Source: a virus
Taxonomy: Duplodnaviria > Heunggongvirae > Uroviricota > Caudoviricetes
Strand: one strand, 5' to 3'
IMG/VR virus record: IMGVR_UViG_3300044984_003074
Length of the DNA stretch: 64,000 nucleotides
Positions 14,943 through 49,409 of the stretch are shown here, in pieces. The notes beneath the pieces were generated by a model. It did not search any database. It saw only the letters and a list, made by a program, of their open reading frames with translations, and was not told the origin of the DNA. How positions within the stretch are numbered: the first letter of the stretch is position 1; the number at the start of each line of letters is the position of its first letter. The position numbers were made by a program, and so were the translations under genes.

Positions 14943-15674
14943 TTAGTCTTCCATTTTTCTCTCAATAGAAAGTTCTTTATCTACGACATTATTTGCCTTA
15001 TCAAATAGTTTTTGAATATGACCAGACCTTCGTAAAAATTTAAAAACTAAATTTTCATAAGACAATTCTCCTTCTTTTTCAAGACCCGATTGTCTATATT
15101 CTTTTAATTTGTTTTTAATATCATCTAAAGTTTTTTGTTCATCAGACTCAAGAGCTTTATCAATTTTTTCAGTCCAATTTTTAATTTTATTTGATAACAA
15201 ATCTTTATCTATCTCTATTTTAAATTGTTTTGGCTTGGTAACCCATTCATTATTCATTATTGAATAAACTCCTGACGCGTAGTGAGATTCTTCGGAATCT
15301 TGTGCGTATAATTCAACATCATACCCAAATATTTTAATGTTATGCTTATCGTTGAAAACTTGTTTTTTTAAATTAAATAATTCTTTGTATAATTCAGAAT
15401 CATCTTCGTATTGTTGTATGTCAACAATGATATGAAGGTCAAAGTCTGAAAATTCAGACCAATTAAAGTTCGCCAAAGAACCTGTAAGTACAACATCTTC
15501 AACAAATACGTCATCTCCAAGATATTCAATAAATTCATCGGCAATACGTTCAAGAGCCTTTCTAACCTTAGGAACCATAGTTGCTTTGTCAGGGTCATTG
15601 GAATTTTCCCAAACTTTTGGGTTTAAAGTCTTCTTAATTGAAAAACTATTAAGTATTTGTTGGAAGTTGCTCAT
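14943..15674 (-). CDS. Pol-beta superfamily nucleotidyltransferase
   Basis: 243 aa; LTGSLANFNWSEFSDFDLHIIV = hG[GS]x10DhD motif, downstream acidic DVE. Confidence 0.5.
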   Translation of the reverse strand: MSNFQQILNSFSIKKTLNPKVWENSNDPDKATMVPKVRKALERIADEFIEYLGDDVFVEDVVLTGSLANFNWSEFSDFDLHIIVDIQQYEDDSELYKELFNLKKQVFNDKHNIKIFGYDVELYAQDSEESHYASGVYSIMNNEWVTKPKQFKIEIDKDLLSNKIKNWTEKIDKALESDEQKTLDDIKNKLKEYRQSGLEKEGELSYENLVFKFLRRSGHIQKLFDKANNVVDKELSIERKMED

Positions 15675-22357: not shown

Positions 22358-23059
22358 ATGTTGAAGTGTTATAAGCATATTGGGATAGATAATAATGATT
22401 GGTGCTGGGAATGCCAAGAATTAACTGACGCTATTAGATTTGAATCAATTAAATTATTAAATAAAATGAAAACAAATAAGGTAATATTTTTGGATAATGA
22501 CGGGGTAATCTGTCTCTCCAATAATTGGGGTGGTCGAGCCAAAAAATGGAAGAAGTATAAGAAACTTAATCCTGAAGCAACTAGCGACACTGTAGCACCC
22601 GTTGAAGTACGATTTGATGATTTTGATAAGAAAGCCGTTAAAGTATTAAATGATGTCTTAGAATTAACAGGTGCTGAACTTGTTGTTTCTTCTGATTGGA
22701 GATTACACGCAACATTGGAAGAAATTGGTGAATATTACCTGTCAAAAGGAATCTCAAAGGCACCAATAGCATTCACCAAACGATACATCGGTTGTGATAA
22801 ACCTGATGAGTTTGTATGGAGACGAAGTACAATGCATGAACAACAAAGATGTATTGAGGTTAGACAATATCTAACAGACCATCCCGAAATCACACATTGG
22901 GCTTGTATTGACGATTTACAGTTAGGAGGGAAAGATTCTTATGGTTATGAACAAGTATGGGGATTATCTAACTTTGTTCATACACCAAGAGAAAATGAAG
23001 GAATCAAACAATCTGGTGTTAAAGAAAAATTATTGGAATATTTAACTAATAATGATTGA
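22358..23059 (+). CDS. HAD-superfamily hydrolase
   Basis: 233 aa; motif I VIFLDNDGVI, motif IV WACIDDL. Confidence 0.45.
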   Translation: MLKCYKHIGIDNNDWCWECQELTDAIRFESIKLLNKMKTNKVIFLDNDGVICLSNNWGGRAKKWKKYKKLNPEATSDTVAPVEVRFDDFDKKAVKVLNDVLELTGAELVVSSDWRLHATLEEIGEYYLSKGISKAPIAFTKRYIGCDKPDEFVWRRSTMHEQQRCIEVRQYLTDHPEITHWACIDDLQLGGKDSYGYEQVWGLSNFVHTPRENEGIKQSGVKEKLLEYLTNND

Positions 23060-26561: not shown

Positions 26562-27140
26562 TTAAAAGTATGTTTGTTCAAAGTATAATACTTGGAACTT
26601 ATCTTTACTATCAATTAAACTCAATGCATTAATTAAGTCGTTATACTCAACTACGGCACCTTTTTGAATTTTTCTAAATTTAGTTAAAACATCAAATGTT
26701 GTAATATCATCAGAAAATACTGTTTGTGAATCTTTGTTATATGCTTTCATTAATGCCAATTCCATTTCATAAGCTCCATTAATAATTTCTTCCAAACTAT
26801 TGAAAGTATGACTAATTTTTGCTGATGGGATTTCAGGGATAATATTGAAATCGGTCATATATTGTTGTAAAATCTCAGAATGACCTAATTCATCTTTTGC
26901 CTCATTTTCAAAAAACGCTGCCGCTTTTTTGTAGTTCATATCCGCACACCAGTTAGTTGCCGCTCTGTAATAATAATGTGCAGTATATTCGTCTTTGATT
27001 CTATCAGTTAAGATTTTAATTGTCTTATCTGATAACGAGTATAATTTAGGTGACTTTGTTAAACCTGGTTTGTTTTCCGCCTCATTCAAGTGCATCACTT
27101 TAAATAATTGTTCCTTTGTTAATGTTAATTTCTTTTCCAT
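26562..27140 (-). CDS. ferritin-like protein (start at internal Met; ORF-track N-terminus is read-through of tRNA-His)
   Basis: EYTAHYYYRAA ... NEAKDELGHSEIL ... ferritin ExxH/di-iron motifs; 5' part of listed ORF 26562..27287 overlaps tRNA gene. Confidence 0.5.
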   Translation of the reverse strand: MEKKLTLTKEQLFKVMHLNEAENKPGLTKSPKLYSLSDKTIKILTDRIKDEYTAHYYYRAATNWCADMNYKKAAAFFENEAKDELGHSEILQQYMTDFNIIPEIPSAKISHTFNSLEEIINGAYEMELALMKAYNKDSQTVFSDDITTFDVLTKFRKIQKGAVVEYNDLINALSLIDSKDKFQVLYFEQTYF

Positions 27141-27176
27141 ACTAATAAATAGTCGGTATAGATGAAAAATATTAGG

Positions 27177-27249
27177 GTGACTAACGGGAATCGAACCCGT
27201 GACAACTTGGACCACAACCAAGCGCTCTACCAACTGAGCTATAGCCACC
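27177..27249 (-). tRNA. tRNA-His (anticodon GUG)
   Basis: GGTGGCTATAGCTCAGTTGGTAGAGC, loop TTGTGGT, discriminator C. Confidence 0.75.
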
Positions 27250-27254
27250 ATATG

Positions 27255-27324
27255 TTGCGTGTTTGGGTTTCGAACCCAATTGACCATCCTTATGAGAGAT
27301 AGTTCTTTTCCTCTAAGTCACGCA
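27255..27324 (-). tRNA. tRNA with CAU anticodon (Met/fMet/Ile2), short atypical D-arm
   Basis: acceptor TGCGTGA/ACACGCA, AC stem TATCT/GGATG loop CTCATAA, T-arm TTGGGTTCGAAACCCAA. Confidence 0.45.
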
Positions 27325-30072: not shown

Positions 30073-30476
30073 TTTTTTTCGTTCAATCATTTCTGACTGT
30101 CCCCAATACCGAATTTCAGCGGCAACCCACTTACGTGAGGGGTTAGAACTTGTGTGTTAACTTACTCCTGTTAATGGTACACTAACCAACCGACTTAGAC
30201 TCAAGTAATCGGCTCAGGTCCCCATGGTTGTAAAACCACTTCTCATCGTTCGGGAGCAAACTAGTCGTATACTACTCGACTCGTGTAGTCGACACGGGAC
30301 TCGAACCCGCACAAGGCAACCTTACAACTCCATAGTCAACACAAGTGTCTGTGACTATTGGTCTTGGGGGTTTGGGACCTTCCCTCATTACACAGTCGAC
30401 TAACAACCCCACTTCACCAGGTTAATGGACTGGCTGCCATATGGGAGTGGGGGTTTCCCGTTAATTCGGGACTCCG
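30073..30476 (-). ncRNA. ~400-nt GC-rich structured segment including a 118-nt tRNA-like minihelix (8-bp acceptor around a GTCGAC palindrome + canonical T-arm, no canonical anticodon arm)
   Basis: minihelix approx 30286-30403: 5' TAGTCGAC ... GCGGGTTCGAGTCCCGT GTCGACTA 3'; remaining sequence forms many hairpins; no ORF support. Confidence 0.35.
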
Positions 30477-30908: not shown

Positions 30909-30940
30909 AAACCCCGAACCTTAATTAAAAGTTCGGGGTC
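30909..30940 (-). terminator. hairpin CCCCGAAC...GTTCGGGG with T-run on minus strand
   Basis: perfect 8-bp stem; T8 run on minus strand. Confidence 0.5.
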
Positions 30941-31130
30941 TGATATGATATAAATTTATATTATTATCCTACGATTACATCCGAACTACATAGCAGCATA
31001 CGCTCATACCAACAAACTATTTGTTGTTTACTAAAGACCATATGTTGTATTGTAGTTTTCATTGTTTCTATAATTATATCAAAGATAGTCAAAATCTTCA
31101 ATTTGTCAAATATTATTTTTTTTTGTACCC

Positions 31131-31203
31131 CAAGAGAGACTCGAACTCTCAAAATCTTGTATCTAAAACAAGCGTGTCTGCCATTCCACCATCGGGGCAT
31201 ATA
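31131..31203 (-). tRNA. tRNA with UAG anticodon (Leu-reading) but short type-I variable arm
   Basis: AC stem CTTGT/ACAAG loop TTTAGAT; T-arm GAGAGTTCGAGTCTCTC; D-stem weak. Confidence 0.45.
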
Positions 31204-31297
31204 TCACATCGTACAGGCATTCTGGTTCTCGCCAACAGAAATTCCATCTTACTTAGCCCACCCTGTGCGATAGGGGTACCTGAGGATATGATAATTG

Positions 31298-31371
31298 TGA
31301 TTCGGATAGGATTCGAACCTATGACCCCAAATTTAGAAGATTTGTGCTCTATCCAGCTGAGCTACCGAACC
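31298..31371 (-). tRNA. tRNA-Arg (anticodon UCU)
   Basis: GGTTCGGTAGCTCAGCTGGATAGAGC, loop CTTCTAA, T-arm ATAGGTTCGAATCCTAT. Confidence 0.75.
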
Positions 31372-31589
31372 ATTTTCCACCAATGAGATTATTTTGGTGT
31401 AGATATCTACAGTTTTCCTATTCAAAACCCATCGCGTCTTACCGCTTAAAAGTCAACCATATACTCGGAGGTCAAGATGGTTCTCTTGCCGTTTTTCCGA
31501 CGACTCCCTCTGTAAAACCGTTTGGAGTACCAGCTACATCATTGTTTAAGTAACGATGCCAAATCTATTGAGTATCTCTATCTCAATCG

Positions 31590-31669
31590 TAGTCAGGACA
31601 GGACTCGAACCTGTAATTCCGGTTAAACCCCTCAACGGGGCCGCGTCTATCCAATTCCGCCACCCGACT
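31590..31669 (-). tRNA. type-II (Leu/Ser-like) tRNA, anticodon arm non-canonical (reads UGA by alignment)
   Basis: D-arm TGGCGGAATTGGATAGACGC (Leu-like), T-arm ACAGGTTCGAGTCCTGT; anticodon region GCCCCGTTGAGGGG forms 5-nt loop. Confidence 0.45.
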
Positions 31670-31808
31670 ATTTTAAAATTCAATTGTGGACTTCCATTTC
31701 CACTCCGATAACTGTTGTCAATGTGATTTGTGCTATTGTACTTCTAGCTTAGACACATCGGGACGCACCATAAACATATGTCAGGGTCTTGTCTTTAATT
31801 GAATTTAG

Positions 31809-31908
31809 TAGTCAGGACAGGACTCGAACCTGTGAGGATATTTAAACTTCAGCAATGATAAAGTACCTTAAAGCGTCTACCAATTCCGCCACCTAACTAT
31901 TTTGAGGT
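31809..31908 (-). tRNA. paralogous type-II tRNA-like gene, 100 nt, aberrant/extended anticodon region (possible pseudo-tRNA or small intron)
   Basis: same acceptor/D/T arms as 31590-31669 but ~20 nt longer; no canonical 7-nt loop. Confidence 0.35.
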
Positions 31909-32253
31909 TGAGAACTCCTCGTGTTGTGCAAATATAGACATAAATCTTTTCAAAATTTATAATCTCACCCGACTATTTCATTCCTATCTCACAGGAACAA
32001 CACATTTTACTTCCACTGAGTTTTTCGGTTATACTTCCAAGTTTTATGTTCTCTGTATTTGTGAGAAAATTGTCCTTTTCTGTAATGAACACCCTCATCC
32101 CAATAAGAAGGGTATTCAAACTTTAACCAAATCAATCTGTAATCTTTTGAACAAGTTGCCTTCTTCAATTTCATTCTGTTTGTATTCACACTCATAATCT
32201 TGAGTCTGTTGTTTAGCAGACCTCAAAGATTATCAAATACCTTTTTCATAATT

Positions 32254-32334
32254 TTAAATTTTGTATCGAGAGAGGGAGTCGAACCCTCACGCCTTATGGC
32301 AAGGAGTCTTAAGCCCCTCGTGTCTACCATTTCA
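32254..32334 (-). tRNA. tRNA-Leu (anticodon UAA), type II
   Basis: AC stem AGGGG/CTCCT loop CTTAAGA, long variable arm, T-arm GAGGGTTCGACTCCCTC. Confidence 0.7.
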
Positions 32335-32534
32335 CCACCTCGATATTTCTTCTACAAAGATAGTAAAATCTTTGATATAACCATAAAAAAACCCCAAACT
32401 TTTCAGTTCAGGGTTAAGTCTCTATAAATAGAATGGCTCTGAACAAATTACCGCATAAGTCTTCTTAACAGACCTTGTCTATTAAGTAATAATGTATGTA
32501 ATAATATTGTTCTCATTGTTTTTATAAATATATC

Positions 32535-33628: not shown

Positions 33629-33703
33629 TGGAGCTAGTGAGAATCGAACTCACCTCAGAGACATTGCAAGTGTTTCTCGCCAAGCCTTGGAACATGTAAC
33701 CCC
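33629..33703 (-). tRNA. tRNA-Ala (anticodon UGC)
   Basis: acceptor GGGGTTA/TAGCTCC with G3:U70, loop CTTGCAA, T-arm GTGAGTTCGATTCTCAC. Confidence 0.55.
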
Positions 33704-34667: not shown

Positions 34668-35228
34668 CTACCCCACTTGTAATAATTCAACTAAACCGTC
34701 GTGTATTTCAGAATGACAATTAGAACATACTAATATACATTTGTCTACCTCGTCTTTTAGTTTTTCAAAACTAACACTTTTTCCTGAAATTGAAAAGTCT
34801 TTTTCTTCAGGATTGAGATGATGAAATTGTAAAGCTCTGTTACATTTTTTATATCCACATAATTCACATTCACCACCCTTATAGTCAATTAATTTTTGTT
34901 TTGTTCGTTTTCTCCATTCAATAACTGCTTCAGTTTTTGAAACTGTTTTATTTTTATTTGTTGTTACAACATATTTTAAAACAGTGTTAATTGCATGTCC
35001 TTTTAATTTTGCAATTTTTTTAACAGAACCAATTTCATCATAAAGTTTTTGTAATTCTAATTTTTGTTCATCTGTCAATCTATCACTATGACCACCCATT
35101 TTATTGAGTTTACAGTGATATGATACTGTTGAAATTGCACAATGTAATTCTTTACAAATTTCTTTATAGGTTTTACCCTGATTTCTTAATTCTATTATTT
35201 TTTCGAAGTATTTACTCATTATTAACAT
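34668..35228 (-). mobile_element. HNH homing endonuclease with N-terminal HTH domains
   Basis: 186 aa; C-terminal HHLNPEEKDF...CILVCSNCHSEIH HNH motif. Confidence 0.6.
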
Positions 35229-35269: not shown

Positions 35270-35354
35270 GCTGACACGGTAGGATTCGAACCTACGTCGG
35301 ATTTTACTCACCAGATTAACAGTCTGGACCATTCGACCTCTATGGCAACATGTC
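35270..35354 (-). tRNA. tRNA-Asn-like (anticodon GUU) with unusually long variable region
   Basis: AC stem CCAGA/TCTGG loop CTGTTAA; T-arm GTAGGTTCGAATCCTAC; 15-nt variable. Confidence 0.5.
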
Positions 35355-35360
35355 AATAAT

Positions 35361-44065: not shown

Positions 44066-44719
44066 ATGATAAAAATAGATAAAGATAGAAAGGTATGGAT
44101 AATCTCCGATACGCACTATGGACATAAGAATATATGTCGTGGTGTGACTGCATGGAGATTACCTGACGGTAGTATCCCATTATCCCAAACCAGAGATTTC
44201 AAAACTATTGAACAAATGAACGAATCTATTGTAAACAATATTAATAGTGTTGTTGGTCAAGATGATGTTTTGATTCACTTGGGTGATTGGAGTTTTGGAG
44301 GGTTTGAAAATGTAAAAATTTTTAGAGATAGAATTGTATGTCAAGAGATACACCTTATATTAGGTAATCACGACCACCACATTGAAAATAACCGAGGGGA
44401 TTGTCAAGAATTGTTTGCAAGCGTTAATCACTACACAAAATTGATGTATAAGTTTGGAACTTTTGTTTTGATGCACTATCCGATGGCATCGTGGGATGGT
44501 TTAAATAAAGGACACGTACACCTTCACGGACACGTACACCTTCCAACAAATCTTAGATTTGGAAAAGGTAAAAAAATGGATGTTGGGATTGATGGTAATC
44601 CAAATTTTGGTGTTTATGACATGGACGATATTGTAAGAATGATAATCAAACGTGAAATTGTGTCGGATATGTTATTTGACCACCACACAGATGAAATAAT
44701 AAATAAAGACAATGGATAA
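44066..44719 (+). CDS. calcineurin-like metallophosphoesterase
   Basis: 217 aa; SDTHYG, GDWSFGG, GNHDHH, GHVHLHGHVH. Confidence 0.6.
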   Translation: MIKIDKDRKVWIISDTHYGHKNICRGVTAWRLPDGSIPLSQTRDFKTIEQMNESIVNNINSVVGQDDVLIHLGDWSFGGFENVKIFRDRIVCQEIHLILGNHDHHIENNRGDCQELFASVNHYTKLMYKFGTFVLMHYPMASWDGLNKGHVHLHGHVHLPTNLRFGKGKKMDVGIDGNPNFGVYDMDDIVRMIIKREIVSDMLFDHHTDEIINKDNG

Positions 44720-48326: not shown

Positions 48327-49409
48327 ATGACCGTAGATATAAACATATTAAACGATTACATAGAAAGAGGGTTGGTGGTTAAAAATGACCACCCAACCCT
48401 TCCTATTTCAATATACAATTATTCTCGTACTTGTCAGTATGAGAATAACTGGGATAGTGTTACTAAAATTTGCCGAGGGCTTATCTTGGATAATGAAGGT
48501 AATGTTGTTGCAAAATCATTTAATAAGTTTTTCAACTACGAAGAATTAACCTTTAAAGACATCCCCGAAGAAACTTTTGAAGTATATGAAAAATTAGATG
48601 GTTCTTTAGGTATTTTATTTTGGTTTAGAGGAAATTGGATTTTGGCAAGTAAAGGTTCGTTTATTTCTGACCAATCAATTAGAGGGACTAAGATATTAAA
48701 TGAAAAATACAATGTTGAAGTTTTACCAAAAGGTTATACTACCGTTGTAGAGATTATTTACCCTGAAAATCGTATTGTTTGTGATTATGGTGATGATGAA
48801 GAATTGGTTGTATTATGTATGATAAGTAATGTCTCAGGTAAAGAATTAGATTATACTTCAATGTTATCCATCAATGAAGTAAGTGGTTTACCAACCGTTA
48901 AAAAATACGATGATGTAACCGATTACGACATACTTAAATCTCAAATAACTCAAAACCGCGAAGGTTATGTTATTCGTTTTAGAAACGGATTTCGTATGAA
49001 AATAAAAGGGGAAGAATATGTTCGTTTACATAGAATCTTAACTGGATTCTCAAATGTTGACATATGGGAATATCTAAAAGATGGTAAAGATGTCTCTGAA
49101 CTATTAGATAAAGTCCCTGATGAATTTGATAAATGGGTTAAAAATACCATTAGAGATTTAAGATATGGGTTTTTTCAAATATCTGAAAGAGCTGGTAAAC
49201 TTCACGATGGATTCCGTTATGGAAAATATGGTGATGTGGACCCTGAACCAACAAAAAAAGAATTTGCGGAGTTTGTATTAAAACAACAAGAAGTATTACG
49301 ACCAATAATGTTTGCCATGTGGGATAAAAAACCATATGATGAGATTATTTGGAAATTGATTAAACCACAATATAGTAAACCGTTTTGGCAAAAAGAAATT
49401 GAACCATGA
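48327..49409 (+). CDS. ATP-dependent RNA ligase, T4 Rnl1-like
   Basis: 360 aa; motif I YEKLDGSL (KxDGSL), VVEIIYPEN, EGYVIRFRNGFRMKIKGEEY (motif IV/V KxK). Confidence 0.6.
   Translation: MTVDINILNDYIERGLVVKNDHPTLPISIYNYSRTCQYENNWDSVTKICRGLILDNEGNVVAKSFNKFFNYEELTFKDIPEETFEVYEKLDGSLGILFWFRGNWILASKGSFISDQSIRGTKILNEKYNVEVLPKGYTTVVEIIYPENRIVCDYGDDEELVVLCMISNVSGKELDYTSMLSINEVSGLPTVKKYDDVTDYDILKSQITQNREGYVIRFRNGFRMKIKGEEYVRLHRILTGFSNVDIWEYLKDGKDVSELLDKVPDEFDKWVKNTIRDLRYGFFQISERAGKLHDGFRYGKYGDVDPEPTKKEFAEFVLKQQEVLRPIMFAMWDKKPYDEIIWKLIKPQYSKPFWQKEIEP

Follow-up and report, generated by a model that had tools for sequence, protein, structure and literature searches.

In a stretch of 64,000 nucleotides (nt) from a virus of the class Caudoviricetes (IMG/VR record IMGVR_UViG_3300044984_003074; by the window we mean the whole of this stretch), we uncovered two adjacent tRNA-shaped genes, termed here units B and C, in which the halves of a Leu-type tRNA top enclose a stretch of unrelated sequence, the cargo, that stands in for both the anticodon arm and the variable arm. 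We hold with high confidence that B and C are members of a family of non-decoding RNAs that is specific to phages, is kept by selection and is built on one common scaffold. A phage-wide family combining one fixed Leu-type top half with more than 100 exchangeable inserts and an organization in arrays is new as far as the literature searched goes: no description of such a family was found in the full-text literature, in a search with subscription journals outside its coverage. As to the mode of action, we lean toward a carrier mechanism, in which B and C would be non-decoding RNAs matured like tRNAs, with the top half of a tRNA-Leu carrying exchangeable functional domains.

The two units are located as follows:

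31809..31898, minus strand: unit C, 90 nt; 37.5 bits against the Rfam tRNA model, no call by ARAGORN under default settings
31590..31669, minus strand: unit B, 80 nt; 35.6 bits against the Rfam tRNA model, called "Gln(ttg)" by ARAGORN

Unit C begins with the 5′ acceptor strand AGUUAGG (31898-31892), followed by U8, G9 and a Leu-type D arm (31889-31873), the 39-nt cargo UUUAAGGUACUUUAUCAUUGCUGAAGUUUAAAUAUCCUC (31872-31834), the T arm (31833-31817), the 3′ acceptor strand (31816-31810), A73 (31809) and C74 (31808). Unit B has the 5′ acceptor strand AGUCGGG (31669-31663), a D arm (31660-31643), the 28-nt cargo GGCCCCGUUGAGGGGUUUAACCGGAAUU (31642-31615), which comprises a 6-bp hairpin with a 5-nt loop and then an 11-nt tail, the T arm (31614-31598), the 3′ acceptor strand (31597-31591) and A73 (31590). 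The two are identical in the T arm (ACAGGTTCGAGTCCTGT), the 3′ acceptor strand (CCTGACT) and A73; their 5′ acceptor strands differ at two positions and each pairs with the common 3′ strand, their D arms are both of the Leu type with one additional nucleotide in the D loop of B, and their middles are unrelated. The first-pass annotation of this DNA had singled out B and C together with a UAG-anticodon tRNA and a tRNA-Asn(GUU). All four loci exist and lie on the minus strand, with some of the coordinates slightly displaced: the span of B was correct (ARAGORN and Rfam concur), whereas C, given as 31809-31908 and as 20 nt longer than B, had been credited with 10 nt of leader, ends at 31898 and exceeds B by only 10 nt. 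The D and T arms of the pair, taken to be identical, are so in the T arm and differ by the one D-loop nucleotide. Neither unit was thought to form a standard anticodon stem-loop. A constrained fold bears this out for C; in B, a 5-bp stem with a 7-nt loop can be drawn, but with G33 in place of U33, and the best fold is the 6-bp stem with a 5-nt loop. The general judgment that B and C are not ordinary decoding tRNAs stands.

Both units have a 7-bp acceptor stem, a D arm with G18G19 and a T arm with a UUCRA loop, and both score just above the Rfam gathering threshold for tRNAs (29). Like most of the related units described below, they carry the identity set of leucyl-tRNA synthetase (LeuRS), taken here from PMC2377443 and PMC6614811, namely A73, U8-A14, a 3-bp D stem with A15 and G18G19, U48, and U54-A58. 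They are without a leucine anticodon (NAG or YAA) or a long paired variable arm, both of which are present in the real Leu tRNAs of the same loci.

The 25-nt T-arm and 3′ acceptor half of B and C recurs exactly in more than 119 viral contigs, which is a lower bound, and in 124 of 128 exact occurrences it is preceded, at a distance that varies, by the matching 5′ half (AGTCAGG TG GCGGAAT(T)GGTAGACGC). With up to four mismatches allowed, the search recovered 258 3′ halves, of which 245 have a 5′ partner; 213 units are unique, their lengths running from 55 to 259 nt (median 103). Acceptor pairing was a criterion in collecting these members, and T-stem and D-stem pairing were not. By comparison, the corresponding 25-mers of two other genes of the window, tRNA-Leu(UAG) and a diverged unit D, are found in 21 and 3 viral contigs, respectively. 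Depending on the tally, 55 to 58 sources hold two or more units, in arrays of up to eight within 2-3 kb. Among 185,579 bacterial and archaeal species genomes, the 25-mer is present in 18 contigs, all from metagenome-assembled genomes (MAGs) of scattered taxonomy; eight of these are assigned to Bacteroidota and several carry multiple units. A cellular origin was considered and rejected: the scaffold does not correspond to a tRNA-Leu of cells and is confined, in that genome set, to those MAG contigs. No cultured phage carries the scaffold, and a single metagenomic GenBank record does. When the window and seven array loci were searched against Rfam at E-value thresholds, the units gave only weak tRNA matches and no match to any other model.

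The core scaffold, which B and C fit, reads AGUCAGG...GGCGGAAU(U)GGUAGACGC...[cargo]...U-ACAGGUUCGARUCCUGU-CCUGACU-A-C. Its constant acceptor stem comprises the pairs A1-U72, G2-C71, U3-A70, C4-G69, A5-U68, G6-C67 and G7-C66, its T stem is ACAGG/CCUGU with a T loop of UUCGA(G/A/U)U, and most units have a Leu-type D arm with a 3-bp D stem, A14, A15 and G18G19. U8 is present in 212 of the 213 units, U48 in 171 and A73 in 204, the remaining nine having G73; C74 (212/213) is followed by an A-rich trailer, and 83% of units have U at position -1. In an alignment of 71 scaffold sequences, 97% of the cells at paired positions are paired and nine of the 15 pairs show double-sided changes, values reached by none of 500 shuffles, whereas sliding the register lowers pairing to about 31-39%. 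Thus, the pairing, the double-sided changes and the shuffled controls identify the scaffold as a structured RNA. There are also more diverged relatives in which the acceptor is fully covaried (AACAGAG/CUCUGUU, AGUCAAA/UUUGAUU and, in unit D, AGUCGAC/GUCGACU). In a minority of units the D arm is not of the Leu type (e.g., GUAGCUCAGUUGGUUAGAGC), the D loop bears a hairpin insertion or, in the nine mentioned above, the discriminator is G73. Since all these units still keep the acceptor and the T arm, what is universal in the family is the acceptor-T minihelix rather than the Leu set. With a covariance model built on the family (R1), members that had no part in its training score 55-74 bits and real tRNAs, those for Leu among them, 48.5 bits or less; within the window, only B (67.4 bits) and C (76.8 bits), whose scores are partly by construction because both are in the training set, reach the family level, and genuine tRNAs do not exceed 38 bits. 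Among the non-canonical tRNA-shaped elements, 188 carry the family acceptor as opposed to 39 with any other, and the real tRNA-Leu genes of the same loci use about 25 different acceptor stems. Hence, cargo carriage is a property of this particular scaffold.

The cargos, in turn, are highly diverse: 238 units fall into 168 cargo classes, 131 of which are singletons. Within a class, cargo identity is 0.77-0.98 as against 0.46-0.73 for the 40-nt flanks, the lower flank values being near the level expected for unrelated sequences. Unit B has near-identical orthologues in L004, L091, L114, L042, L080, L096 and L048 (L-numbers denote related contigs or loci compared with the window); in five phages whose flanks are 83-92% identical it differs by 1-3 substitutions per 80 nt, and among close orthologues its anticodon-like loop reads UUG or UCG depending on the phage. 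Because identity within classes exceeds that of the flanks and B is near-identical across five phages, the sequence comparisons argue that the cargo is selected and is not debris. A decoding arm is generally absent: a canonical 5-bp/7-nt arm at positions 27-43 occurs in three of 160 units, with 1.2 expected from shuffled cargo, so that the frequency is at chance level and the distribution is like that of the shuffles. ARAGORN makes no call for 162 of 215 units and spreads the remainder over more than 35 "anticodons", including two- and four-base ones and ones with A34; to our knowledge, A34 anticodons are essentially unused in bacteria. A few units do resemble real tRNAs, such as a Leu(UAA)-like one in L036. 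Cargo representatives searched against about 1.4 Mb of the loci have almost no match outside units. The cargos also show a mild excess of AGGT/GAGGT and CCCT, which is consistent with G/C-rich stems, and a depletion of GATC.

The units behave as residents of tRNA operons. Where a canonical tRNA lies within 2 kb, the unit always points the same way as the nearest one (116 of 116 units), and none of 58 arrays is of mixed orientation; no enrichment of the Bacteroidota promoter motif TAnnTTTG was found upstream of units. In the window, B and C lie in the following context:

30909..32415, minus strand: probable transcription unit, running from high to low coordinates through Leu(UAA), an open reading frame (ORF) of 62 amino acids, C, B, a 215-nt module, Arg(UCU) and Leu(UAG)
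31899..31985, minus strand: conserved leader upstream of C, with the hairpin GAGGAGUUCUCAACCUC, ending in ...CAAAAU directly before position 1
31373..31588, minus strand: non-coding module, conserved and about 215 nt long, just downstream of B; it travels with B and has no Rfam match

A terminator scan places intrinsic terminators at 32415-32390, the end of the preceding unit, and at 30941-30909, the end of the transcription unit of C and B itself. The 62-codon ORF (32007-32195, minus strand; start MSVNTNRMKLKK) sits inside this tRNA operon between Leu(UAA) and C, and its region is 84% identical in L080. What stands behind this leader differs between phages: in the window it is cargo C, in L114 cargo B, in L044 a third cargo, and in L120 an ordinary tRNA-Arg. 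L120 is the closest relative of the window, lacks B and C and is otherwise 88-98% similar. In L114, the cargo of B lies between the flanks of C, with the downstream flank of C retained. Thus, with three different cargos or a tRNA at one orthologous site, cargos are replaced in place inside the constant halves, and these halves are long enough to serve as homology arms. The 215-nt module is 83-92% identical in L004, L091, L080, L096 and L042, with several conserved hairpins and two double-sided changes. Modules follow both B and D, and no downstream companion RNA is found family-wide.

Under the carrier mechanism, the units would be transcribed inside tRNA operons and excised by the host tRNA maturation machinery, with RNase P cutting at the 5′ end (U at -1), followed by 3′ trimming and CCA addition after C74. 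We infer such tRNA-like maturation because the -1 U and C74 are common to the units and the real tRNAs of the window and the leader is shared with a real tRNA. The units would then fold into an L shape, in which the elbow and the acceptor end could lend stability and a likeness to tRNA in the eyes of cellular factors, and the bottom half would present an RNA domain without decoding ability that carries the unit-specific function, for example binding a host or phage factor or an RNA. They would also probably bind LeuRS and might be leucylated, since bacterial LeuRS ignores the anticodon arm; both are plausible. In Aquifex LeuRS, stripping tRNA-Leu of its entire anticodon arm costs only 2.5-fold in affinity, the critical elements being A73, U8-A14, G18-U55, G19-C56 and U48 (PMC2377443); the Escherichia coli identity set is described in PMC6614811. 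Finally, the near-identical halves could act as homology arms through which cargos are exchanged or replaced by recombination.

tRNA-like non-coding RNAs as such are of an already known kind, which includes tmRNA, YrlA, tRNA-Other, viral vtRNAs and mascRNA. The vtRNAs of MHV68 and the MALAT1 mascRNA are tRNA-shaped, processed by tRNA enzymes and non-decoding, and the tRNA part of the former expresses linked small RNAs. The same likeness to the phage units is seen in tRNA-Other of Bacillus cereus (PMC3399842), but all three are single genes or small sets, cellular or from eukaryotic viruses, and have no constant scaffold with a large repertoire of exchangeable cargo. The tRNA-like domain of tmRNA and YrlA (PMC4201824), which also occur in phages, come closer, in that a functional domain foreign to tRNAs is joined to a mimic of their top half. 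However, tmRNA has an alanine identity (G3:U70), pseudoknots and a tag ORF, as opposed to the U3-A70 pair of the family acceptor, while YrlA ends in a Ro-binding stem and the phage units end in an acceptor stem. Both were tried as assignments for B and C and rejected: neither unit has an ARAGORN tmRNA call or an Rfam match to tmRNA, nor a match to RF02553 (bacterial Y RNA) at an E-value of 1 or less. As an observation apart, a phage-encoded tmRNA gene adjoins a scaffold unit in L035 (11841-12227, minus strand).

The closest parallel is man-made. In the engineered tRNA scaffold of Ponchon and Dardel, another RNA takes the place of the anticodon stem-loop on a body that retains the acceptor, T and D arms, and the product is processed and protected in Escherichia coli, with RNAs of up to about 250 nt (PMC3753655). 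It depends on the cellular tRNA-processing factors for precise ends and nuclease protection, and its capacity of about 250 nt matches the range of the phage cargos. By this analogy, we infer that the phage family is a natural counterpart of the engineered scaffold. The two differ in that the engineered insert sits on a closing hairpin whereas the natural units have no generic closing helix, and in that the phage units also replace the variable region, use one specific Leu-type body, occur in arrays and exchange their cargo. A second laboratory precedent concerns charging: minimalist tRNA-Leu substrates with the anticodon arm deleted are still leucylated in vitro, according to PMC2377443, which cites Larkin et al. 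2002. They share with the units a Leu top half, A73, an intact elbow and the lack of a functional anticodon arm, but are laboratory constructs.

Several observations weigh against the carrier mechanism or temper it. The near-invariance of the acceptor and T sequence is not explained by it, as any tRNA body would serve for stability alone; the hints are of a sequence-specific partner or of homogenization by recombination. Part of the apparent invariance of the scaffold is in any case inflated by ascertainment through the 25-mer, and the maturation and LeuRS steps are read from sequence. The folding energy of the cargos is about that of shuffled cargo (median z about -0.6). A closing helix of the kind used in the engineered scaffold is found in 11% of cargos as against 15% of shuffles, and none is generic. 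No motif is common to all cargos, and clustering of the ORFs within 3 kb of units revealed no partner protein, the commonest family being present at 15 of 138 loci. The cargo of C is an orphan, with no homologue in the viral or metagenome contigs, and no target was found for B or C within the 64-kb window, where the longest complementarity to their cargos is 10-11 nt, no better than with shuffled cargo.

One alternative takes its cue from a set of RNA-repair-type genes in the window:

48327-49409, plus strand: Rnl1-like RNA ligase (PF09511, 69 bits)
22358-23059, plus strand: HAD domain of the "Swiss Army Knife" RNA-repair proteins
44066-44719, plus strand: metallophosphoesterase
14943-15674, minus strand: weak match to the NTP_transf_2 nucleotidyltransferases

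The ligase, which has 254 relatives in viral contigs, had already been recognized in the first-pass annotation, and is indeed present along with the RNA-repair HAD domain. As that annotation had also proposed for anticodon nucleases, the units could be decoys against tRNA-targeting defense, which would soak up host nucleases or toxins that attack tRNAs, alongside the phage tRNAs and Rnl1-type repair genes. The arrays of diversified units in a variable accessory region do resemble arms-race loci, and toxins acting on the acceptor end or the elbow recognize the top half of a tRNA. However, anticodon nucleases recognize an anticodon loop, which the units do not have; a pure decoy needs no conserved cargo, yet the cargo is conserved within classes; and no contig-level link to Rnl1 could be shown, one of the best 80 Rnl1 contigs being also among the scaffold contigs listed, in two sets that are both fragmentary. 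We consider this improbable, and only slightly less so a function directed at LeuRS, which partly overlaps the carrier mechanism and to which we still give a low likelihood. In this alternative, the units would be non-decoding leucine acceptors, donating leucine for non-ribosomal transfer or directed at EF-Tu or the ribosome, or competitive sponges of LeuRS or other readers of the top half, with the cargo tuning or targeting the activity. The retained identity set (A73, U8 and U48 at the frequencies given above, A14, A15 and G18G19 in most units, and U54/A58), the near-invariant C74 and the dispensability of the anticodon arm for leucylation (PMC2377443) speak for it. Against this, the units with non-Leu D arms, D-loop hairpins or G73 still keep the acceptor and the T arm, the D-arm and elbow features are those expected of any L-shaped fold descended from a tRNA-Leu, and the 168 cargo classes are left unexplained.

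Three further readings, namely pseudogenes, introns or recoding, and DNA-only elements, are each contradicted by the tests. That the units are decaying or chimeric tRNA-Leu pseudogenes, neutral recombination debris of tRNA arrays, had been raised in the first-pass annotation, and gains some color from the real recombination between units seen in L114, the nested T-arm-like pieces in units of L026, L039, L040 and L098, and the little structure predicted in the cargo. It is nevertheless very improbable: the scaffold is near-invariant, 97% paired and marked by compensatory changes; scaffold and cargo are each conserved across phages with non-alignable flanks, the cargo more so than the flanks; 213 unique units lie in co-oriented arrays and unrelated phage contexts; and decay would not spare both halves and randomize the middle alone. 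A DNA-level element, in which the conserved halves would serve as sites of recombination or integration, or would bound a small mobile cassette, could account for the 8-bp inverted repeat at the unit ends (UAGUCAGG...CCUGACUA), the unrelated contexts and the cargos swapped in place. We give it very little credence, because stem changes compensate one another as RNA pairs, G-U pairs among them, the tertiary partners of the D and T loops are conserved, the orientation is always that of the neighboring tRNAs, and no recombinase is associated among the ORFs near units. Least probable of all is that the units truly decode, as tRNAs with short introns, enlarged anticodon loops or a recoding role; of these, introns and recoding had been suggested earlier. 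With its intron option at default settings, ARAGORN finds nothing in C; only at a lowered threshold is C forced into a "Phe(gaa) plus a 15-nt intron", which leaves a CUGAAGU loop with U33 and R37, in a window that already has a Phe(GAA). Such intron-mode calls cover 132 of 213 units and scatter over 56 isotype/anticodon combinations, many with A34. The relaxed-threshold model of C and the few units resembling real tRNAs (L036) speak for decoding. Rfam gives no group I intron signal, the inserts of B and C (28 and 39 nt) fall short of the roughly 200 nt or more of such an intron, and we know of no bacterial or phage mechanism for removing inserts of 15-150 nt. Recoding also fails on the shift of the B loop from UUG to UCG between close orthologues and on ordinary stop-codon usage.

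The carrier mechanism, toward which we lean, can be extended to a more specific proposal that we regard as possible and put forward tentatively: phages of freshwater bacteria might maintain a modular RNA "display", in which the fixed, probably leucylatable top half serves as a handle for processing and stability, an adaptor to the host tRNA-binding machinery and a pair of homology arms, and more than 100 effector domains, for example RNA inhibitors of host defense or gene expression, are held in arrays and shuffled among phages.

Beyond B and C, the window carries one diverged element of comparable shape:

30286..30401, minus strand: unit D, 116 nt, diverged and tRNA-shaped, between tRNA-Phe and tRNA-Lys (T-arm scan; 32.1 bits against R1)

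Both its acceptor (AGUCGAC/GUCGACU) and its T stem (GCGGG/CCCGU) have covaried when set against the core scaffold. A Leu-type D arm is missing, and the structured cargo, of about 80 nt, is homologous to cargos in L050 and L110 that ride on xGUCAGG/CCUGACA acceptors. Its exact 3′ 25-mer accounts for the three contigs noted above. The 403-nt Phe-Lys spacer in which it lies is otherwise a mosaic of conserved non-coding pieces patchily common to other phages (30076-30285 and 30402-30475, minus strand): the roughly 200 nt that follow unit D are found again behind family units in L088 and L044, and the first 75 nt of the spacer recur in L027, L148 and L080. Other tRNA-like types were noted in the compared loci, namely a 92-nt type with a D-loop hairpin insertion and, where the anticodon loop would be, a CGAAAG tetraloop hairpin (L005, L019 and L051), a 90-94-nt "ACUGACG..." type (L039, L050 and L079), and a 76-nt type whose anticodon loop, of 6 or 8 nt, contains UUUAAA (L050, L076, L098 and L110). 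In L003, a near-threshold freshwater-1 RNA motif (RF02979; 4124-4186, plus strand; 70.1 bits, gathering 72) lies inside an array of tRNAs and scaffold units.

The other two loci flagged at the outset are of a different nature:

31126..31198, minus strand: type-I tRNA-Leu(UAG), 73 nt (ARAGORN; Rfam tRNA 56.3 bits)
35271..35355, minus strand: tRNA-Asn(GUU), 85 nt (ARAGORN; Rfam 46.2 bits)

Both are genuinely unusual, as had been perceived, and the short variable arm of the one and the 15-nt variable region of the other hold, at spans slightly shifted from those first given (31131-31203 and 35270-35354). From their canonical cloverleafs with compensatory changes among homologues, they are judged to be functional tRNAs of unusual shape. 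The tRNA-Leu(UAG) has G1-U72, A73, a Leu-type D arm, a variable loop of 5 nt (AUUUU) and a canonical anticodon loop, UUUAGAU, with U33 and A37. Related phage contigs hold it in eight distinct versions, among which compensatory changes affect every stem; its 3′ 25-mer occurs in the 21 viral contigs given above, and genes about 80% identical are annotated as tRNA-Leu in T5-like Vibrio phages. Type-II sisters of 82-83 nt share its acceptor and T arm and retain a short variable hairpin, and hence the type-I form arose by loss of this hairpin within a phage tRNA lineage. A type-I tRNA-Leu(UAA) of 74-75 nt is also present in L004, L091, L096 and L088; thus, in some of these phages both leucine isoacceptor families are without a long variable arm. 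Type-I tRNA-Leu is rare in bacteria, with a documented and chargeable example in Streptomyces coelicolor (PMC6614811). That tRNA is likewise of the bacterial type with a 5-nt variable loop and coexists with type-II tRNA-Leu. The phage gene differs from it in being phage-encoded, in its UAG anticodon (UAA in related phages) and in its derivation by loss of a short variable hairpin in a phage lineage. The proposal that TAG might be unusually frequent as a sense or stop codon rested on a slip, as a tRNA with anticodon UAG decodes the leucine codons CUA/CUN and does not read the TAG stop; the window has 310 CUN codons, 63 of them CUA. The ORFs of the window are long and their stops (TAA 54, TGA 8, TAG 3) give no sign of reassignment, so that the standard code applies.

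The tRNA-Asn(GUU) has the 15-nt variable region UGAGUAAAAUCCGAC, an 11-nt D loop and G73. Its one homologue, in L147, has a fully covaried acceptor stem, one covarying D-stem pair and a similar 15-nt variable region. At the corresponding place L120 has an ordinary, unrelated Asn gene of 73 nt, and in the window a gene for a helix-turn-helix-HNH endonuclease (34668-35228, minus strand) adjoins the Asn and Pro tRNAs; this juxtaposition suggests replacement of a tRNA gene near a homing endonuclease.

These genes belong to an array in a tailed-phage genome segment of low GC (32%), which codes for a portal protein, a large terminase, a prohead protease, ClpP, a Lon-like protease and a thymidylate synthase, and for which no close relative was found among 50,697 GenBank phage records. 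ARAGORN identifies 22 tRNA genes on the minus strand at 25.9-35.4 kb and one on the plus strand, with which Rfam concurs. To these can be added an uncalled tRNA-Ala(UGC) (33629-33703, minus strand) with an aberrant D region (CAUGUUCCAAGGCUUGGCG), G3:U70, A73 and the anticodon loop CUUGCAA, which is the sole Ala tRNA of the array. It is missed by default ARAGORN and by Rfam and is called by ARAGORN only at -ps90; it is kept in L120, L158, L110, L027, L150 and L157, with covariation in the acceptor, T and anticodon stems. Also within the array is a ferritin/rubrerythrin-like ORF (26562-27287, minus strand), the 5′ end of which overlaps tRNA-His (27175-27248) and a T-arm-like motif (27263-27279).

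The type-I Leu tRNAs, the long-variable Asn tRNA and the Ala tRNA with an aberrant D arm lengthen the list of non-canonical but functional tRNAs. As for the scaffold family, annotation pipelines either miss the units or assign arbitrary anticodons to them, which distorts tRNA counts and codon-usage arguments in phages. If the carrier mechanism is true, phages would have reached the biotechnologists' tRNA-scaffold trick on their own and would use it at scale, with at least 213 units, 168 cargo classes and arrays of up to eight. It would also raise the questions of whether non-decoding RNAs are nevertheless charged with leucine and why one acceptor and T-arm sequence is fixed across unrelated phages. 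The units would then amount to a large store of small phage RNAs, structured or regulatory, that is still unexplored; each cargo class, being conserved, presumably has a function, and these RNAs would be easily found, as the scaffold provides a near-constant sequence tag.

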